Shown here: positions 2,893 through 9,574 of the stretch, one piece after another
Layout of the letters: each line of letters starts with the position of its first letter
Numbering within the stretch: the stretch's first letter is position 1
DNA from: a virus
Lineage: Duplodnaviria > Caudoviricetes
DNA: 64,000 bases
IMG/VR virus record: IMGVR_UViG_3300024259_001623
Strand: one strand, 5' to 3'
The notes under the pieces: model-generated
What the model saw: the letters and a program-made list of their open reading frames with translations, nothing else
Database searches by the model: none
Told to the model about the DNA's origin: nothing
Position numbers and translations under genes: made by a program

Positions 2893-3405
2893 CTACTTCT
2901 TAGGTTTGATTCTTTTTTCTATATCTGCAAGAATCAATTTAGGATCGCATTCTGGGCAATCATCGAATTGAATATCTTCTAAATCATATCCCTTAAATAG
3001 TTTAGGCCAACGTTTTTTGATATTAACAGCATCAGAACTTTTCTGAGGATTAGAACCATAATCATTACCATAGGCTTTTTTAGTATCTGTATTCCAAGTA
3101 TTACCATCTTTAGGAATGTAGCCTCTCAGGTTTTTGCCATCCCAATATATAATAAAGAAAACTGGCATTTCCCAATCACCACCGGCAACCCAACCCCAAT
3201 ACGGCAGACCATGACTAGTTACATTATAACCAGTTATATCTTTACAACCATTATAGCCGCTTCCCTTAACATATTCATAATTCTCAAAATCAAATTCGAC
3301 CTTAGATATATCTTTCTGTATCTTTTCTGGAAAATCCCATACATTAATATTATCAGTCTTTTTCATTAAAAATGGTAAACTATGACGCTCAAATTTTCTA
3401 GCCAT
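2893..3405 (-). CDS. hypothetical protein within the NAD gene cluster
   Basis: 170-aa ORF with GGAG RBS, between the Nudix gene and HNH/nadE; no motif recognised. Confidence 0.75.
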   Translation of the reverse strand: MARKFERHSLPFLMKKTDNINVWDFPEKIQKDISKVEFDFENYEYVKGSGYNGCKDITGYNVTSHGLPYWGWVAGGDWEMPVFFIIYWDGKNLRGYIPKDGNTWNTDTKKAYGNDYGSNPQKSSDAVNIKKRWPKLFKGYDLEDIQFDDCPECDPKLILADIEKRIKPKK

Positions 3406-3416
3406 TTATTGTCTCC

Positions 3417-3998
3417 TTAAATCCTACCAGACATTTTCAAATACATCCAACATTTAGCCCCAAGATGTGAGCCTTTGTCAATCTCTTGTTGAATTTGACC
3501 TTTTTCTAATGCCAGAACTTCGATATCTTCATCTGCTTCATTGAATTCAGTTGAGATTTCTCCATAAGCTTCCACGAAAACGCATACAACAGATTCATCT
3601 GACAGTCCAGCAGAATTACATAGCGGAGGACTAACATCTAAAACTCTTACCACTCCAAGACCAGTTTCTTCCTTAAACTCTCTAATAGCAGCTTGCCCTG
3701 GAGTTTCTCCTTCATCAATCAAACCGGCAGGGAATCCCAACTCATAACCATTCAGAGGAACCCTGAACTGCTTAATCAGAACAATTTTTTCATGTTCTGT
3801 TTGAACACTTTGAAAATATGTATCTTGTCCTAAAGTTCCAATGATTACTACGGCATCGGGCTTTGTCTTTGCCTCTACATTTTGATTCTTTCTGGAAGCA
3901 AAAATCCATCTTCCTTGACAATCCTTATGAGTATACTTAGACTCATAAAGATTTATGAATTTCTCATCAGTAATTTTTGTTGTTGTTGTAACTCTCAT
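3417..3998 (-). CDS. Nudix hydrolase, ADP-ribose pyrophosphatase (NudF-like)
   Basis: Nudix box GLIDEGETPGQAAIREFKEETG; QFRVP...ELGFPAG and SAGLSDE segments typical of ADPRases; translationally coupled to pncB. Confidence 0.8.
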   Translation of the reverse strand: MRVTTTTKITDEKFINLYESKYTHKDCQGRWIFASRKNQNVEAKTKPDAVVIIGTLGQDTYFQSVQTEHEKIVLIKQFRVPLNGYELGFPAGLIDEGETPGQAAIREFKEETGLGVVRVLDVSPPLCNSAGLSDESVVCVFVEAYGEISTEFNEADEDIEVLALEKGQIQQEIDKGSHLGAKCWMYLKMSGRI

Positions 3999-5218
3999 TA
4001 TTCATTCTCGCATAAAGGTTTATTCTGGAACATCCACTTGGCGACCTTAACAGCATCTTTATCGCCCGTTTCTTTTCCATCATCATCACTCAACTTAACA
4101 ACTTCAATTCCATTAACAGAACGAAGTTTAATAACCATATTCAAAGACTTACTGCCTTCAAAATCATTGGTAAAATTAGTTCCTATACCGAAAGAACATC
4201 TAATACCAATTTCTTTGCAGTAATGTTCTATTTCAATTGCTTTATCTGGATTCAATCCATCGCTGAAAATAATAACCTTACTCATAGGATCAATATTATT
4301 TTTCTTATAATGATAAACTATTTTATCAGCAAATTTAAAAGGATCACCGCTATCATGCCTAACGCCGTCATACAGTTTAGATAGCCTTAGATTGAAGTTT
4401 CCCAAAAACGCATCGGTACCAAAAGTATCAGTCAATGCAATACCAAGATCAGCATTATAAACTCTAACCCAATTTTGCAAAGCAAAATAGTTTGCATTTC
4501 TTAATCCTTCAAGAGCAGAACATCCCATGAACCATTCATGTGCCATCGTCCCGATAGGCTTAATACCATACTTTCTAGCAAAATAAACATTGCTTGTTCC
4601 CATAAATCTCTTGTTCCATTGGGTTAATCCCTGAGCATAAATAGCTTCATTAATAAAATTATCATGGAAATAATGACTTCTTCTTCGCCTAGTCCCAAAG
4701 TCAGCAAAAGTAACATTATTCTGTACTAACTTAGATACTTTTGCGTTAGCCTTGCGGCAGAAATCTGTATAATCTTTTTCCAAATCAGTTTCTACTGTAT
4801 TAAAGTAAATTTCGCTAATTGCTGCCATCAACGGGACTTCCCATAGAATCGTACTATGCCAAGGTCCGCTGACAGTAATAGACAAATTATTGTCATCATC
4901 AAGATCAATTTCAACCTCATCAGGATTGAACCTATAATCTTTAAGGTACTTAAGATAGGACTTTGTGAAGTAAGGACATGTAGCCTCTAAATATTCATAT
5001 TCACCGCTGGTCAACCTTAACGATGGCAAACCATAATTGATATAAGCTTCTAGCTCTGCCATGAACTTGACATTAAATCTTTGATCGCCTCTATTAGTAA
5101 ATCTGTACGTAACTTCTGCATCAGGGAACAGTTCCAAAACTGCTTGCTGCATTGACAGCTTGTAAGTATCTGTGTCTAATAGACTTACAGCTCTAATAAT
5201 TCTTTCATCGTTTTTCAC
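3998..5218 (-). CDS. pncB: nicotinate phosphoribosyltransferase
   Basis: [69 protein letters not shown]: NAPRTase pattern, not NAMPT. Confidence 0.92.
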
Positions 5219-5262: not shown

Positions 5263-5937
5263 CTACAACCTTTCGGTCAACCATCCTTTATGATTTTTTC
5301 TTTCTCCATTTGCAACTTTTATCATATTTGATGGAGTTAAATTATGTTCTTCACAAAAAACAGATAGACCATTTTCTGTTATAAATATATTTCCATCTGG
5401 ATCAGTCACTTTATATTTTTTAATATTTATTTTTCCTTTTGAAGTTTTACTACATTTAATTCTTGTTTCCGGCTTTGTAATTCTTTTTTTTCTAGCAATA
5501 CTTAAATTCTTTTTATGTTTTTTAGAGAACTTCATTCCTTTTCTAGCTTCACTCATTTTTTTACGAGATTCTATTGAACGTTTTTGGCCTCTTCTTTTTT
5601 CAGCAGCTTTTTTTTGTATTTCCGGAGTTAAACCTTTTCCTCCTTCTCCACCGTTTGCTATGTTGCACATTTTAAGACCTTCTTGTCTAAATTTTGCAAT
5701 ATAGAATATTTCTCTGTCATCTACCTCTTTATCATTAAGGTCATTTTCCAAAACTATAAAATCAAAATCTCTACCCTCTTTCCATAATTTTCTTATTTTA
5801 TTTTGTAAATGATATCTACGTTTATAGGATTTAGCATCAGACCTATGATGCCTCATTCTATTATAAGTATTATTAGTTTTTCCAACATAAAAAATTAAAC
5901 GAGTATCAATTTCTATAAGTGCGTATATTGTATGCAT
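5263..5937 (-). CDS. GIY-YIG homing endonuclease with NUMOD3-type repeats
   Basis: TIY...FYVGKT N-terminus, NIANGGEG linker, SRKKMSEARKG-type repeats. Confidence 0.85.
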   Translation of the reverse strand: MHTIYALIEIDTRLIFYVGKTNNTYNRMRHHRSDAKSYKRRYHLQNKIRKLWKEGRDFDFIVLENDLNDKEVDDREIFYIAKFRQEGLKMCNIANGGEGGKGLTPEIQKKAAEKRRGQKRSIESRKKMSEARKGMKFSKKHKKNLSIARKKRITKPETRIKCSKTSKGKINIKKYKVTDPDGNIFITENGLSVFCEEHNLTPSNMIKVANGERKNHKGWLTERL

Positions 5938-6379: not shown

Positions 6380-6664
6380 TTAAACGACCTTATAAGTCTG
6401 TCCGTTAAGCTTCAACTGTCTGATTCCCGAAACATTGACATTACGGAAGTTCTTCTTCGTCATGTCAAAAACAGTCATCAGTCCAGTTCCCTTGCGACTC
6501 TTCTTAGTTCCCTTAACTCCCTTACTGACTCCAGTTCGGCAGTTCATAGTTCGCAACTCGTTATTGCTTCGCTTGATAAAACTAACGGTCATAAACTTAC
6601 CCTTAGAATTCTGCATCTTTGTTACAGCTTCTTGAACAGTAATCTTCTTGCTTCTCGTACTCAT
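6380..6664 (-). CDS. small basic phage protein, SH3-like fold family
   Basis: GKFMTVSFIKRSNNELRTMNCRTGV...VFDMTKKNFRNVN pattern seen in small phage SH3-fold proteins. Confidence 0.55.
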   Translation of the reverse strand: MSTRSKKITVQEAVTKMQNSKGKFMTVSFIKRSNNELRTMNCRTGVSKGVKGTKKSRKGTGLMTVFDMTKKNFRNVNVSGIRQLKLNGQTYKVV

Positions 6665-6690
6665 CTTTTTCTCCTTGTTAAGATTTTAAT

Positions 6691-7617
6691 TTACCATGTT
6701 TTATATGCGTCTTTAATTATTTCCAAACTTTCTGAACTTCTTAAACCATAATTGGAACAAGACAAATCAACCATTTGTTTTCCATCGCAATAAGAAGACG
6801 GTCCTGCTTTGCATTCTACAGCATCAATATACATCGAAAATTTACCATCTTCTGTATCGAACAAACGATCAGGAATATCCGCCTCAAGTATCTGCTCTTC
6901 ATAAGTATAAGCAAGAACAGTATCTATTGACAATCTAGGAAGCTTTTCGCTTTCCTTGAGTTCTTTACAAATCTTAATCCAATTGTCGTTGTTTTCTGGA
7001 GTATAACTCGATCCTCTACCACTTTCTTTATATCCTAGCAGAGTAACTCCATAATATAGTTCATGGGCTTTTTCCAGTATCTCTTTTAAATCATGCTCCG
7101 AAGCAGAACCCATAACATAATGCAACTGCTTACAGAGTCTTTTACCCCAATAAGGATTGCTCTCGATACCATTGAACACCATGCATGATTCTAAAAGCTC
7201 AATATCTTCAACGCATTTAACTGAAAAAGCAAATGAACCACAGTTTTCTATGATGCCGGGCCATTTTCTAGCGTCCCTCATCCAATCCATAGATTTTGTA
7301 GTAAAATTAGGAACAACTCCTTGTTTCCTAAAAGCTTTCAGAATATCAACAAAATCTGGATGGCTAGTTGGTTCTCCACCACCTATTGCAACTTCAAATA
7401 CTCTCATTTCCTGCAATATATAAGCTATGTTTTCTATTGTATTTAAATCTGCATGACTTCCTTTAGTATCAGAATTCTGATAACAATTATGAACAAGAAT
7501 ATTATTTGCAAAATAATTATGTTCTGGAGTAGTTCCGATATTATAAACTTTACCTTTATAAGGGATCTTTTTAACAGATTTAACTTTTATTATGAACTTC
7601 GCCTTGTTAACTTTCAT
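6691..7617 (-). CDS. split intein C-part (44 aa) fused to the C-terminal portion of a radical SAM enzyme
   Basis: MKVN...KVKSVKKIPYKGKVYNIGTTPEHNYFANNILVHN|CYQNS (intein blocks F/G, HN/C junction at 7486/7485); then VAIGGGEPTSHP, VPNFTT radical SAM core. Confidence 0.9.
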   Translation of the reverse strand: MKVNKAKFIIKVKSVKKIPYKGKVYNIGTTPEHNYFANNILVHNCYQNSDTKGSHADLNTIENIAYILQEMRVFEVAIGGGEPTSHPDFVDILKAFRKQGVVPNFTTKSMDWMRDARKWPGIIENCGSFAFSVKCVEDIELLESCMVFNGIESNPYWGKRLCKQLHYVMGSASEHDLKEILEKAHELYYGVTLLGYKESGRGSSYTPENNDNWIKICKELKESEKLPRLSIDTVLAYTYEEQILEADIPDRLFDTEDGKFSMYIDAVECKAGPSSYCDGKQMVDLSCSNYGLRSSESLEIIKDAYKTW

Positions 7618-7636
7618 CTTTTTAATCCTTCTTTCC

Positions 7637-8596
7637 TTAATGTCTTTGAAAATCTACTTTTTTATGACAACTAACGCAATAAGTAATCCCTATTGCATTT
7701 TTATGTTCTTCTATAATTTGATCATTCACCCGTTCAAACTCTTCATAACTTAACAAATCCATTATTCTTCCATTTAATATCTTTTCTACAATATTTTGAA
7801 AAGTTGGACTTATATGATGAACTTCTAGACGACCTCCAACTGATCCACATTTACAACAGGTAAAATCATCTCTTTCTAAAATAGGTCTTATCCATGCCTT
7901 ATACAACCTAGATCGTATAACTTGACACCTATCCCTATTTCCTTTCCATAGATGATGATTTTTACCCCTGATATAAACAATTTCACCACTTTTAACTCTT
8001 CTTTTAATTGTTGCTTTTACTTTTGCGACTACATCTTTACGCTTCATAGGATTCTTTTCACCCTTCATCTTGTCAGACGCAAAACTAGAAAATTCTTCTG
8101 GAGTCATTCTTGTTACAGGCGTTTTAATTTTTTCATAATCATCGATATTAACTTCTTTTTTCATAAAAGTGGACGCCATCTTTGCCCTGACTTCTTTTCT
8201 CTTCATTGGATTATTTTGTTTCATTCTTTGCGAAGATTTTTTGTTATTTCCTTTTTTACAGATATCACATACATTGATATCAAATTCAGATAAAGTTTTT
8301 GTTTTCTTTTTTACAACTGTTTTTATAAATTTATTACACTTGCGACATTTCAAATCAATATTAATCTCTTTAAAATTATGAATCTTAATGTTTTTACAAT
8401 TACCACATAAAACTTCGTTTCTTTTACCTATGAATTCTTTATTACAATATTTACATTTTTTTGTTTTATTTTTTTTATGATATTGATCATTTCTTTTTTG
8501 TTTTTTACATTTTTCAGAACAATATTTTCCATTAGTTTTGGCAATAAATTGTTTTTTACATTTTCCGCAATATGCTATATGTCCCATAATGAACAC
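7637..8596 (-). CDS. HNH homing endonuclease between the split intein halves
   Basis: N-terminal CxxC zinc fingers; ILERDDFTCCKCG...LEVHHI...ITYCVSCHKKVD. Confidence 0.85.
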   Translation of the reverse strand: MFIMGHIAYCGKCKKQFIAKTNGKYCSEKCKKQKRNDQYHKKNKTKKCKYCNKEFIGKRNEVLCGNCKNIKIHNFKEINIDLKCRKCNKFIKTVVKKKTKTLSEFDINVCDICKKGNNKKSSQRMKQNNPMKRKEVRAKMASTFMKKEVNIDDYEKIKTPVTRMTPEEFSSFASDKMKGEKNPMKRKDVVAKVKATIKRRVKSGEIVYIRGKNHHLWKGNRDRCQVIRSRLYKAWIRPILERDDFTCCKCGSVGGRLEVHHISPTFQNIVEKILNGRIMDLLSYEEFERVNDQIIEEHKNAIGITYCVSCHKKVDFQRH

Positions 8597-8620
8597 TCCT
8601 TTAAACGAATATATGTATTT

Positions 8621-8652
8621 TATACATTCGCTAACTTAAAAAAGTATCCTTC
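8621..8652 (-). promoter_or_regulatory. putative phage-sigma promoter (GAAGG-N18-GAATGTATA)
   Basis: Motif copy upstream of HNH 7637..8596. Confidence 0.55.
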
Positions 8653-9574
8653 AAAATTTTAAAATATGATCATTTTCTTCAATATTTTCTGCTTTTATCC
8701 AGCCACGATTTAAAGTATATACTTCATGATTCGGAGTCAATTTAATTTCTGAGCCATCTTCTGCTTCAATAACTATTAAATCACCTTCATAATCTCTTTC
8801 AAAGATTTGTTCTGTAACTAATTCAACTCTTTTTTCTTCTTTATTATTATATCCATAAACTATATCATTAATCTTGATATCTTTTATAGCAACTTCTCCA
8901 TCTGGAGTTAAGATCATAGTCTCTGGGACTAAACAGAATTCGCAACCCTTGTCGCACCAATTGGTTATCTTCAAATCAACCAATTCAGGCGATGAAGATT
9001 TTGTATATTCTTCTTTAGTATCTTCAAAAGAGAACTTTACTTTCCCGCCAGTTTTTCTATTAAAAATAACCCACCAGATTCCATCTTTTCTTGCGATAAC
9101 ATCATCGTTGTGAAAATCCGTTTCCAATGGAAGTCTAAATGCTTGACCTTGATCAGTTAATGGATGACTCTCATCAGAATTATCATTACCACCTAAGATA
9201 ACCAAATCTTCTCTTAGCATATATTTTTTGAAATCTGCGAAAAATTCCTCATCAAAATAATCGCCTTTCCAATTAGTAGGAAGAGCTAAAACACTTTGAT
9301 GGTCAATATAAGCAGTTGTCGATTCGATATCAAGACCTGTAACTTCCTTTACAACCAATCTGGCGACTTTATCATTAAAAATATCTCTTAAATTATTGAA
9401 TAACGTAAGAGACAGATAATCTCCTTTAGATTCTTCAGAAGCAGCAGTAAAAAATCCCCATCCGAAATCTCCATCCGTAGCCATGTGATCGTCAGATATT
9501 CCATCTAAGAAAATCAACGAATGACTTGAGCTACTGTTAGTCGCTAAACCCAATCTTACTTTTGCTATATTCAT
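8651..9574 (-). CDS. radical SAM N-terminal portion (TNSSS-motif domain + CxxxCxx) fused to split intein N-part (94 aa)
   Basis: ...ELVDLKITNWCDKGCEF|CLVPETMILTPDG (block A, Cys1 codon 8933-8935)...IKLTPNHEVYT (block B TxxH)...GWIKAENI*. Confidence 0.9.
   Translation of the reverse strand: MNIAKVRLGLATNSSSSHSLIFLDGISDDHMATDGDFGWGFFTAASEESKGDYLSLTLFNNLRDIFNDKVARLVVKEVTGLDIESTTAYIDHQSVLALPTNWKGDYFDEEFFADFKKYMLREDLVILGGNDNSDESHPLTDQGQAFRLPLETDFHNDDVIARKDGIWWVIFNRKTGGKVKFSFEDTKEEYTKSSSPELVDLKITNWCDKGCEFCLVPETMILTPDGEVAIKDIKINDIVYGYNNKEEKRVELVTEQIFERDYEGDLIVIEAEDGSEIKLTPNHEVYTLNRGWIKAENIEENDHILKF

Follow-up and report, generated by a model that had tools for sequence, protein, structure and literature searches.

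A gene for a radical S-adenosylmethionine (SAM) enzyme lies in two pieces in a 64,000-nucleotide stretch of viral DNA (IMG/VR record IMGVR_UViG_3300024259_001623), with each piece joined to one part of a naturally split intein and a predicted HNH endonuclease gene in the gap between them. The stretch is called the window below, and in counts of copies the same word stands for its copy of the locus. With a probability of roughly 85%, we take the locus to be a true fractured gene from a marine jumbo phage, in which the intein halves would splice in trans and the nuclease would promote homing. Three adjacent open reading frames (ORFs), 8651..9574 (307 amino acids, aa), 7637..8596 (319 aa) and 6691..7617 (308 aa), are co-oriented on the minus strand. 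They carry, in this order, an N-extein (213 aa) followed by the N-terminal intein half (IntN, 94 aa), the free-standing HNH gene, and the C-terminal intein half (IntC, 44 aa) followed by the C-extein (264 aa), and both host-gene pieces retain their original order and orientation. These coordinates, together with the junction text, residue counts and charges, had been given correctly in a first-pass annotation of the sequence. The features of the locus are as follows.

8936..9574, minus strand: N-extein, residues 1-213; phage-specific N-terminal domain, then the first two cluster cysteines, C207 and C211
8651..8935, minus strand: IntN, 94 residues from Cys214 (intein Cys1); block A CLVPET, block B TPNH; TGA stop at 8651-8653
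8591..8649, minus strand: spacer hairpin ahead of the HNH gene, from an RNA fold; encloses TATAAAATA (8616-8624) and pairs AGGAG (8596-8600)
7637..8587, minus strand: HNH-type endonuclease gene, 316 aa from ATG 8587; ORF open from GTG 8596; PHROG matches
7486..7617, minus strand: IntC, 44 residues ending NILVHN; the family core is the last 35 residues (7486-7590); Pfam Intein_splicing match
6691..7485, minus strand: C-extein, 264 residues and stop; starts at Cys45; GGGEP SAM-binding motif, then the remainder of the radical SAM barrel

The HNH frame is present at 7637..8596, as first annotated, but its start is more likely ATG 8587, which has AGGAG 8 nt upstream and gives a product of 316 aa, as in homologs. 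The 44 residues given for IntC are right for the window, whereas the typical IntC of the family has 35 aa and starts MK(I/V)K; the window copy is nine residues longer at its N-terminus, since ATA stands in place of the usual Met codon. The ribosome-binding site of the IntC gene, GAAAGAAGGA, lies inside the 19-nt spacer 3′ of the HNH stop.

The position of the break is fixed by comparison with uninterrupted relatives. The N-half reads ...ITNWCDKGCEF/CLVPET..., where the slash marks the border of extein and intein, has TPNH near its end, and stops 94 residues past Cys214, and the C-half opens with 44 residues ending ...NILVHN, followed by CYQNSDTKG. The uninterrupted homolog gp146c of Salmonella phage Arash (476 aa) aligns over residues 1-209 with residues 1-214 of the N-half (E 3e-24) and over residues 209-455 with residues 45-284 of the C-half, starting from Cys45 (E 3e-32), and both alignments abut Cys209 of CDLACKFCYQDS in the Arash protein. 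In 79 of the 80 IMG/VR loci encoding relatives, the exteins are contiguous in one frame exactly at residue 213/214. The insert therefore sits immediately before the third cysteine of the CxxxCxxC motif, and joining the exteins (213 + 264) restores 477 residues, against 476 in the Arash protein. Upon the predicted splicing, a C207-x3-C211-x2-C(+1) motif would arise in which Cys45 serves both as the +1 nucleophile and as the third CxxxCxxC ligand; a product of ~477 aa with this double role for one cysteine had been proposed in the first-pass annotation, and it matches both the Arash alignments and the contiguous relatives.

By sequence and fold prediction, the host enzyme appears to be a generic radical SAM protein that belongs to no named subfamily. 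The C-half matches Pfam Radical_SAM (PF04055) at 31.3 bits, with a cut-off of 29.5, and PHROG 16999 'Fe-S oxidoreductase' at E 9.4e-28, while no NCBIfam subfamily model comes near its cut-off, the best reaching 49 bits against 650. A model of an intein-less homolog (pLDDT 89.5) resembles SuiB, SkfB, CteB, anSME and other radical SAM enzymes, with Foldseek E values from 1e-10 to 1e-6. The N-domain of about 200 residues has viral hypothetical-protein clusters as its sole relatives, and its motifs ATNSSSSHS, DHQS and GGNDN are, with the cysteines, invariant in 29 N-halves and 60 intein-less homologs. Just the three motif cysteines are invariant in these 60 homologs, and therefore no auxiliary cluster is conserved. 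The family is phage-borne, on IMG/VR contigs of up to 608 kb. Twelve loci lie in cellular genomes, nearly all of them bins of metagenome-assembled genomes, and none of the 12 is fractured; among deposited phages, just 23 records hold a relative of the C-extein. In one locus (L098:1958-2494), the 'TNSSSSHS...DHQS' domain that is fused to the enzyme in the window forms a separate upstream ORF, and in another (L088:1261-1975) two small upstream ORFs carry a similar ITNSSSE motif, which suggests that this domain is a modular partner of these radical SAM enzymes.

The two intein halves match opposite ends of the same Pfam model, Intein_splicing (PF14890), the N-half at model positions 11-93 (E 6.5e-8, 33.0 bits) and the C-half at positions 121-155 (E 8.4e-6, 26.1 bits), so that by sequence they are complementary ends of one intein domain. 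All residues of class-1 splicing are present in the window, namely Cys1, the block B Thr and His, the terminal His-Asn, and Cys+1. Cys214 is invariant in the 29 aligned N-halves (30 of 30 in the full classification), as are C207 and C211; block B TPNH corresponds to residues 280-283, of which T280 and H283 form invariant columns, and every copy stops at the same point. On the other side, HN followed by the +1 Cys is found in all 28 C-halves of the family, with ILVHN/CYQNS in the window. The invariance of Cys1, the block B Thr and His, and HN/C therefore argues that the splicing residues are under selection. The halves are also oppositely charged, as first noted: IntN has a net charge of -12 in the window (22 acidic and 10 basic residues) and of -7 to -17 across 30 copies, and IntC has +8 (9 Lys and 1 Glu) and ranges from -1 to +8 across 28 copies, mostly from +2 to +8. 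The call of a naturally split intein is thus borne out by the complementary Pfam matches, the conserved splicing residues and the collinearity with intein-less homologs.

Binding of IntN to IntC was also approached by docking prediction. The pair scored 0.56, against 0.00 for the best control, with at least 90% of contacts agreeing between runs and a partner pLDDT of 61, a result graded as 'weak support'. Of 78 solved complexes, 51 reached the docking mark, as did 2 of 108 mismatched pairs, and a score of 0.60 or below was seen in just 5 of the 78 solved complexes and in every one of the 4 passing mismatches. Given this grade, the docking result was not counted as evidence of binding. A fold of the contiguous intein with the split halves as alignment rows was likewise dropped, as MAFFT paired the second half of IntN with IntC and left the alignment unfit for use. 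This pairing, of YEGDLIVIE...LTPNHEV with YKGKVYNIG..TPEHNYF, is itself a trace of the pseudo-two-fold repeat of the HINT fold.

The cassette recurs in metagenomes. We searched for N-halves with a word-indexed search using the window N-half, and for C-halves with an exhaustive HMMER search using the window C-half. The former returned ~30 clusters of 284-361-aa proteins with the same IntN at their C-terminal end (34-47% identity), along with hundreds of intein-less enzymes of 460-500 aa. The latter gave 2292 hits, including ~25 clusters of 274-398-aa C-halves (all but one below 320 aa) that start at query residue 10-11. Among the 266 retrieved proteins that were classified, 194 are intein-less, 30 are N-halves, 28 are C-halves, and 2 have both intein parts. 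On contigs of 340 kb (L005) and 460 kb (L003), the order is N-half, a 316-aa ORF and C-half, and the same IntN-HNH-IntC cassette is present in four further loci (L008, L101, L102, L103). A search of metagenome contigs with the HNH protein returned 14 loci, of which 11 (L086, L088, L089, L091-L098) have an IntN upstream and an IntC downstream; two (L087, L090) hold shorter free-standing HNH relatives in ordinary intergenic positions, and the last (L099) is a 1-kb contig with flanks too short for the intein parts to be judged. The HNH gene keeps its position in the gap in every fractured locus with DNA. Judged from these sequences, the IntN-HNH-IntC cassette is one heritable unit that forms a family in metagenomic phages.

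The gap ORF is predicted to encode an HNH nuclease. It matches PHROG 1271 'HNH endonuclease' (E 7.6e-15) and PHROG 8446 (E 6e-8), and it contains N-terminal CxxC zinc-ribbon pairs, two NPMKRK-type repeats and a C-terminal CxxC...EVHH...CxxCH core. The pattern CxxC...EVHH...H...CxxCH is invariant in three HNH homologs, which also share the NPM(K/H)-type repeats. Over its full length, the window protein shares 36-37% identity with the corresponding ORFs of L003 and L005, and 28-45% with those of L101-L103. In Pfam and PHROG searches it matches neither GIY-YIG nor Vsr, in NCBIfam the IscB HNH region is matched at a mere E 8.6e-4, and no tblastn match was found at E 1e-5 among 50,697 deposited phage genomes. 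An HNH gene in the gap, as first annotated, accordingly agrees with a separate ORF with its own ribosome-binding site, with PHROG HNH matches and with recurrence at this position. In one locus (L097:3007-4398), the HNH region spans ~1.4 kb between the intein halves and gives two consecutive matches to the window HNH protein (residues 7-158, then 15-315), suggestive of a partial tandem duplication. IntN and HNH share one frame in the window, L003, L005 and L008, and a recently broken in-frame HNH intein or read-through was considered on this ground; it was rejected, since the frames differ in L089, L091, L093 and L096-L098.

The spacer from the IntN stop to the HNH start (54-63 nt) contains a hairpin of -21.2 kcal/mol with a z-score of -5.7, and none of 200 shuffles was as stable. 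In the window, the hairpin pairs the AGGAG ribosome-binding site and encloses TATAAAATA, which resembles the T4-type late promoter box TATAAATA. In L003, L005 and L008, the 5′ arm holds CATAAATA, the loop AGGAG and the 3′ arm AUG, and the spacer of L088 likewise has a strong hairpin. By RNA folding, the hairpin is predicted to mask the ribosome-binding site of the HNH gene. A 6-bp inverted repeat, TGCGAC AAGG GTTGCG, was flagged by a terminator scan at window positions 8941-8956 (minus strand). It lies in the codons of Cys-Asp-Lys-Gly-Cys, directly at the intein insertion point, and could be part of a nuclease recognition site, or chance.

Other alleles of the enzyme family hold the same or different inteins. 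The first-pass annotation had pointed to intein-less or contiguous-intein orthologs as a check, and both were found, the former in the 194 proteins already mentioned. The contiguous case (P0134; 624 aa, locus L104) carries this intein unsplit, as a mini-intein at the identical site, and no HNH gene lies nearby. It is above the Pfam thresholds for both domains, and is the sole allele above the PF14890 cut-off (58.1 bits). By sequence, its intein matches solved inteins, namely a bacterial intein-like domain (2lwy; E 2e-11), the NrdJ-1 split intein (1.5e-10) and Pho RadA (3.5e-9). This mini-intein and the free-standing HNH relatives together fit a model in which a mini-intein becomes split when a free-standing nuclease gene inserts into it, as put forward earlier (Dassa et al., 2009, PMC2677866; 2025 actinophage survey). 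Further proteins of the family carry other inteins. An unrelated LAGLIDADG-type intein occupies the same site at the third Cys in P0141 (825 aa), an intein stands at the second cluster Cys in P0200 (HYCPYS/C...HN/CEFC), and a LAGLIDADG intein interrupts the GGGE SAM-binding motif in P0182 and P0212 (...YEIA/C...HN/CGGGE), giving three intein insertion points within about 40 residues of the active site in one enzyme family.

The same cassette also sits at the homologous Cys of at least two radical SAM gene types beyond that of the window, at least three in all. The junctions, with the end of the N-extein and the start of the intein, and for two loci the end of the intein and the start of the C-extein, read as follows.

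L088: ...KCVTGKCNF/CLVPET and ...HN/CYVSS
L089: ...ECNGRCKF/CSPDGT and ...HN/CYKDN
L095: ...GCAVGCRF/CFLPGE
L096: ...GCVHNCQF/CFLPGT
L098: ...YCDLGCSF/CFLPSS

Every one of the HNH-derived loci that was read has Cys at -3 and Phe at -1, and position -1 is F, Y, W or M across the 30 N-halves of the family; the host of L097 has a SPASM domain at the Pfam threshold. Between the window and L088, the intein is 55% identical and the C-extein 23% (a sole BLAST high-scoring pair of 40 residues), and the window intein is 50-53% identical to its same-host relatives, comparable to the value for L088. It is on this basis alone, the intein identity exceeding that of the exteins, that the sequences suggest movement of the cassette between radical SAM genes. 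A 96-column intein tree was set aside as proof of host switching, as 21 of its 36 inner branches are open; it is unresolved at depth and compatible with a single origin of the window-family group. Extein switching has been reported for actinophage inteins (2025 actinophage survey).

The fractured-gene layout was described by Dassa, London, Stoddard, Schueler-Furman and Pietrokovski in 2009, for gp41-1, gp41-8, NrdJ-1, NrdA-2, IMPDH-1 and others. The hosts in that study are gp41 helicase, IMPDH, DnaE, NrdA, NrdJ, DNA ligase and terminase, the nucleases are GIY-YIG or Vsr-like, and hairpins with a late-promoter element before the endonucleases are frequent without being defining (PMC2677866). 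Like these systems, the window gene is interrupted at a catalytic motif and lies as two co-oriented genes, has a canonical class-1 split (~90-100 plus ~35-45 residues) with opposite net charges on the halves, has a hairpin with a TATAAATA-like box before the endonuclease start, and is of environmental phage origin. The IntN-endonuclease-IntC order, which the first-pass annotation took to be a known layout, does match this scheme and recurs in independent metagenomes. Unlike these systems, the window has a radical SAM enzyme as host and a zinc-ribbon HNH protein as nuclease, and the window-type cassette is found at the homologous cysteine of at least three radical SAM gene types. By its sequence, the window locus is thus a member of the fractured-gene class whose host superfamily and nuclease family are absent from the published examples. 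The description of the host as unusual holds in part: it is absent from the seven hosts of Dassa et al. (2009), and the searchable literature gave nothing combining an intein with a radical SAM extein, but the cassette is not rare in metagenomes and a contiguous MoaA intein has been published. Among deposited phages, no megablast match to the window was found, and the nearest inteins are in helicases and other genes, none of them in radical SAM genes.

Three other known systems come close. In the Pyrococcus abyssi MoaA intein (Callahan et al., 2011, as described in PMC3922620 and PMC10663303), a disulfide between the native N-extein Cys(-3) and Cys1 blocks splicing until it is reduced. By that description, the MoaA intein shares with the window a place in a radical SAM, oxygen-labile enzyme, and C211 and C214 of the window are likewise arranged as Cys(-3)-x-x-Cys1. 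The archaeal MoaA intein is contiguous and splices in cis, whereas that of the window is split and accompanied by a free-standing nuclease; the MoaA site may be the third Cys of the radical SAM motif or lie at the second Cys motif of MoaA. In Aeromonas phage Aeh1, which is T4-like, the HNH-family gene mobE interrupts nrdA, and the two parts of NrdA reportedly come together again without a covalent link (PMC3045599; cited in PMC3322345, PMC3653736). Here too, a free-standing HNH-family gene divides a phage enzyme gene into two co-oriented genes, and translation of the Aeh1 nuclease depends on a hairpin in which a late promoter lies, with a silencing role cited (PMC2677866). In contrast to the window, which has the complete set of splicing residues, Aeh1 NrdA has no intein. 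The nearest solved naturally split intein by sequence is NrdJ-1 (PDB 8ubs/9omb), which gives the phmmer E value of 1.5e-10 with the contiguous allele. It has in common with the window family the HINT fold, the canonical split site and the pattern ...TP(D/E/N)H...NRG(W/Y)(I/V)(K/R)A...H(N/A), and it differs in its remote sequence similarity, its host, a class II ribonucleotide reductase, and its insertion motif.

The following course of events is proposed. An ancestral radical SAM enzyme of ~477 aa would have held a mini-intein at a site directly preceding the third cysteine in its CxxxCxxC [4Fe-4S] motif, and a free-standing HNH gene would have landed in this mini-intein at the canonical endonuclease site, leaving an acidic IntN (94 aa) on the N-extein and a basic IntC (35-44 aa) on the C-extein, in two genes. 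The charge-complementary intein halves would bring the two polypeptides together and fold into a HINT domain. Splicing would then follow the class-1 route, with an N-S acyl shift at Cys214, attack by Cys45, cyclisation of Asn44 and an S-N shift, and would give ...NWCDKGCEF-CYQNS..., the sole form with all three cluster ligands from the enzyme. The HNH protein would cut intein-less alleles of co-infecting relatives, and repair would copy the whole IntN-HNH-IntC cassette. Its translation would be repressed by the hairpin that masks the ribosome-binding site, and freed on transcripts starting at the late-promoter-like box inside the hairpin.

Several points weigh against this reading. Each intein half alone falls below the curated cut-off of PF14890 (33.0 and 26.1 against 35.8 bits). 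Docking gives weak support, and its score could stem from solved split inteins that the model had memorized. Cys1 and Cys+1 may owe part of their conservation to a possible function as cluster ligands; for the His of block B and the terminal Asn, splicing is the sole role. A Pfam search of the window HNH protein gave no HNH match at E<0.1, and the nuclease call therefore rests on the PHROG families and the conserved Cys/His motifs. The box in the window hairpin differs from TATAAATA by one extra A, and that consensus is of the T4 type and may not be that of this phage. Among the runs listed with the locus there is no RNA run, and the spliced protein, its transcript, the target and activity of the nuclease and the timing of its expression are predictions from DNA.

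An improbable alternative is that the intein halves no longer splice and have become a charge-driven dimerisation module that holds a two-chain enzyme together non-covalently, with Cys214 perhaps completing the CxxxCxxC motif. The N-half alone does have an intact C-x3-C-x2-C (C207, C211 and intein C214), and Aeh1 NrdA, fractured by mobE and reportedly reassembled without splicing, is a published precedent (PMC3045599). However, the block B Thr and His and the terminal His-Asn, needed for splicing chemistry only, are invariant in 28-30 copies at 35-45% identity, Cys+1 is kept in every copy, and the contiguous mini-intein allele could give no working enzyme without splicing. It is quite unlikely that the locus is instead a decaying, non-functional remnant, in which a selfish insert inactivated the radical SAM gene and deletion is still to follow. 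The enzyme may be dispensable, as it is missing from most deposited phages, yet both halves are full-length and stop-free, with every family-invariant motif and their own ribosome-binding sites. Moreover, the split state persists in ~30 lineages diverged to 35-45% identity in which the exteins are still conserved, and both halves are therefore under purifying selection.

An assembly artefact, in which the segment 7637..8596 was wrongly joined into a contiguous intein gene, is extremely improbable. The first-pass annotation had named mis-assembly as a check; nothing in its favor was found, and separate contigs cross both junctions. The window stretch is present in at least eight seawater runs at 90% or more of sampled words. 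In two runs not flagged as its source, contigs cover 7049-8282 and 8453-9060 (X7) and 6600-7790 and 8400-8908 (X8), each with 0 differences; these were assembled separately, and the IntN-stop/HNH and HNH/IntC junctions are therefore both bridged independently. A contig of a third run (X6) covers 6840-8685 with 0 differences and, with X6 flagged as a possible source, is not independent. The three-gene order also recurs across unrelated samples and sequencing centers at 30-50% protein identity. An apparent joint of 7662 to 8739 in X7 and X8 contigs was examined as an HNH-less allele and rejected, as just 21-24 letters match on each side and the 15-kb contigs are of other organisms.

We also entertain, with considerable doubt, an extension of the fractured-gene reading, in which the cassette is specific to the radical SAM motif, hops between unrelated radical SAM genes, and has its splicing gated by iron-sulfur or redox state. 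Here, the cassette may recognize the DNA coding the C-x-aromatic-C end of the cluster motif. Before splicing, the N-half may hold a complete CxxxCxxC with the intein Cys1 in place of the third ligand, and the first acyl shift may be blocked by a disulfide between Cys(-3) and Cys1 or by a metal or cluster bound there. The oxygen-labile enzyme may then be completed only under reducing, iron-replete conditions.

Other mobile elements lie near these loci. The window has a free-standing GIY-YIG homing endonuclease gene at 5263-5937 (minus strand; Pfam GIY-YIG E 1.1e-9, PHROG 314 E 2.2e-25), placed between a phosphoribosyltransferase-like gene (3998-5218) and small ORFs, as a second mobile nuclease less than 1 kb from the fractured gene. 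In L003, a second fractured gene stands ~600 bp upstream of the radical SAM one (L003:2639-5422), in the order DEAD/ResIII helicase N-part with an intein N-part (338 aa), NUMOD3-containing ORF (302 aa) and Helicase_C (279 aa); its counterpart in the related contig L005 is intact (3340-4797) and has a NUMOD3 ORF close by on the opposite strand. On the contig of a relative (P0019), a TROVE/Ro60 gene lies ~400 bp (one 93-aa ORF) downstream of the fractured radical SAM gene.

The known mechanism is unchanged, and the advance is therefore incremental: the fractured-gene class gains a new host superfamily and a new family of free-standing nucleases. One cassette at the same catalytic cysteine of several radical SAM gene types is a compact case for the change of hosts by an intein and its nuclease, and with empty, mini, full and split alleles in one protein the whole intein life cycle can be compared. 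With a +1 nucleophile that is itself an Fe-S ligand and a Cys at -3, conditional maturation of an oxygen-sensitive enzyme becomes directly testable, because the same geometry acts as a redox trap in the P. abyssi MoaA intein as described. The ~30 natural IntN/IntC pairs (35-55% identity, strong charge complementarity) might be developed into fast or orthogonal tools for trans-splicing, although these split inteins are Cys-dependent and may need the native CY at +1/+2. If splicing is gated as suggested, these ~30 diverged, charge-matched pairs would be a natural library of conditional, possibly orthogonal split inteins.

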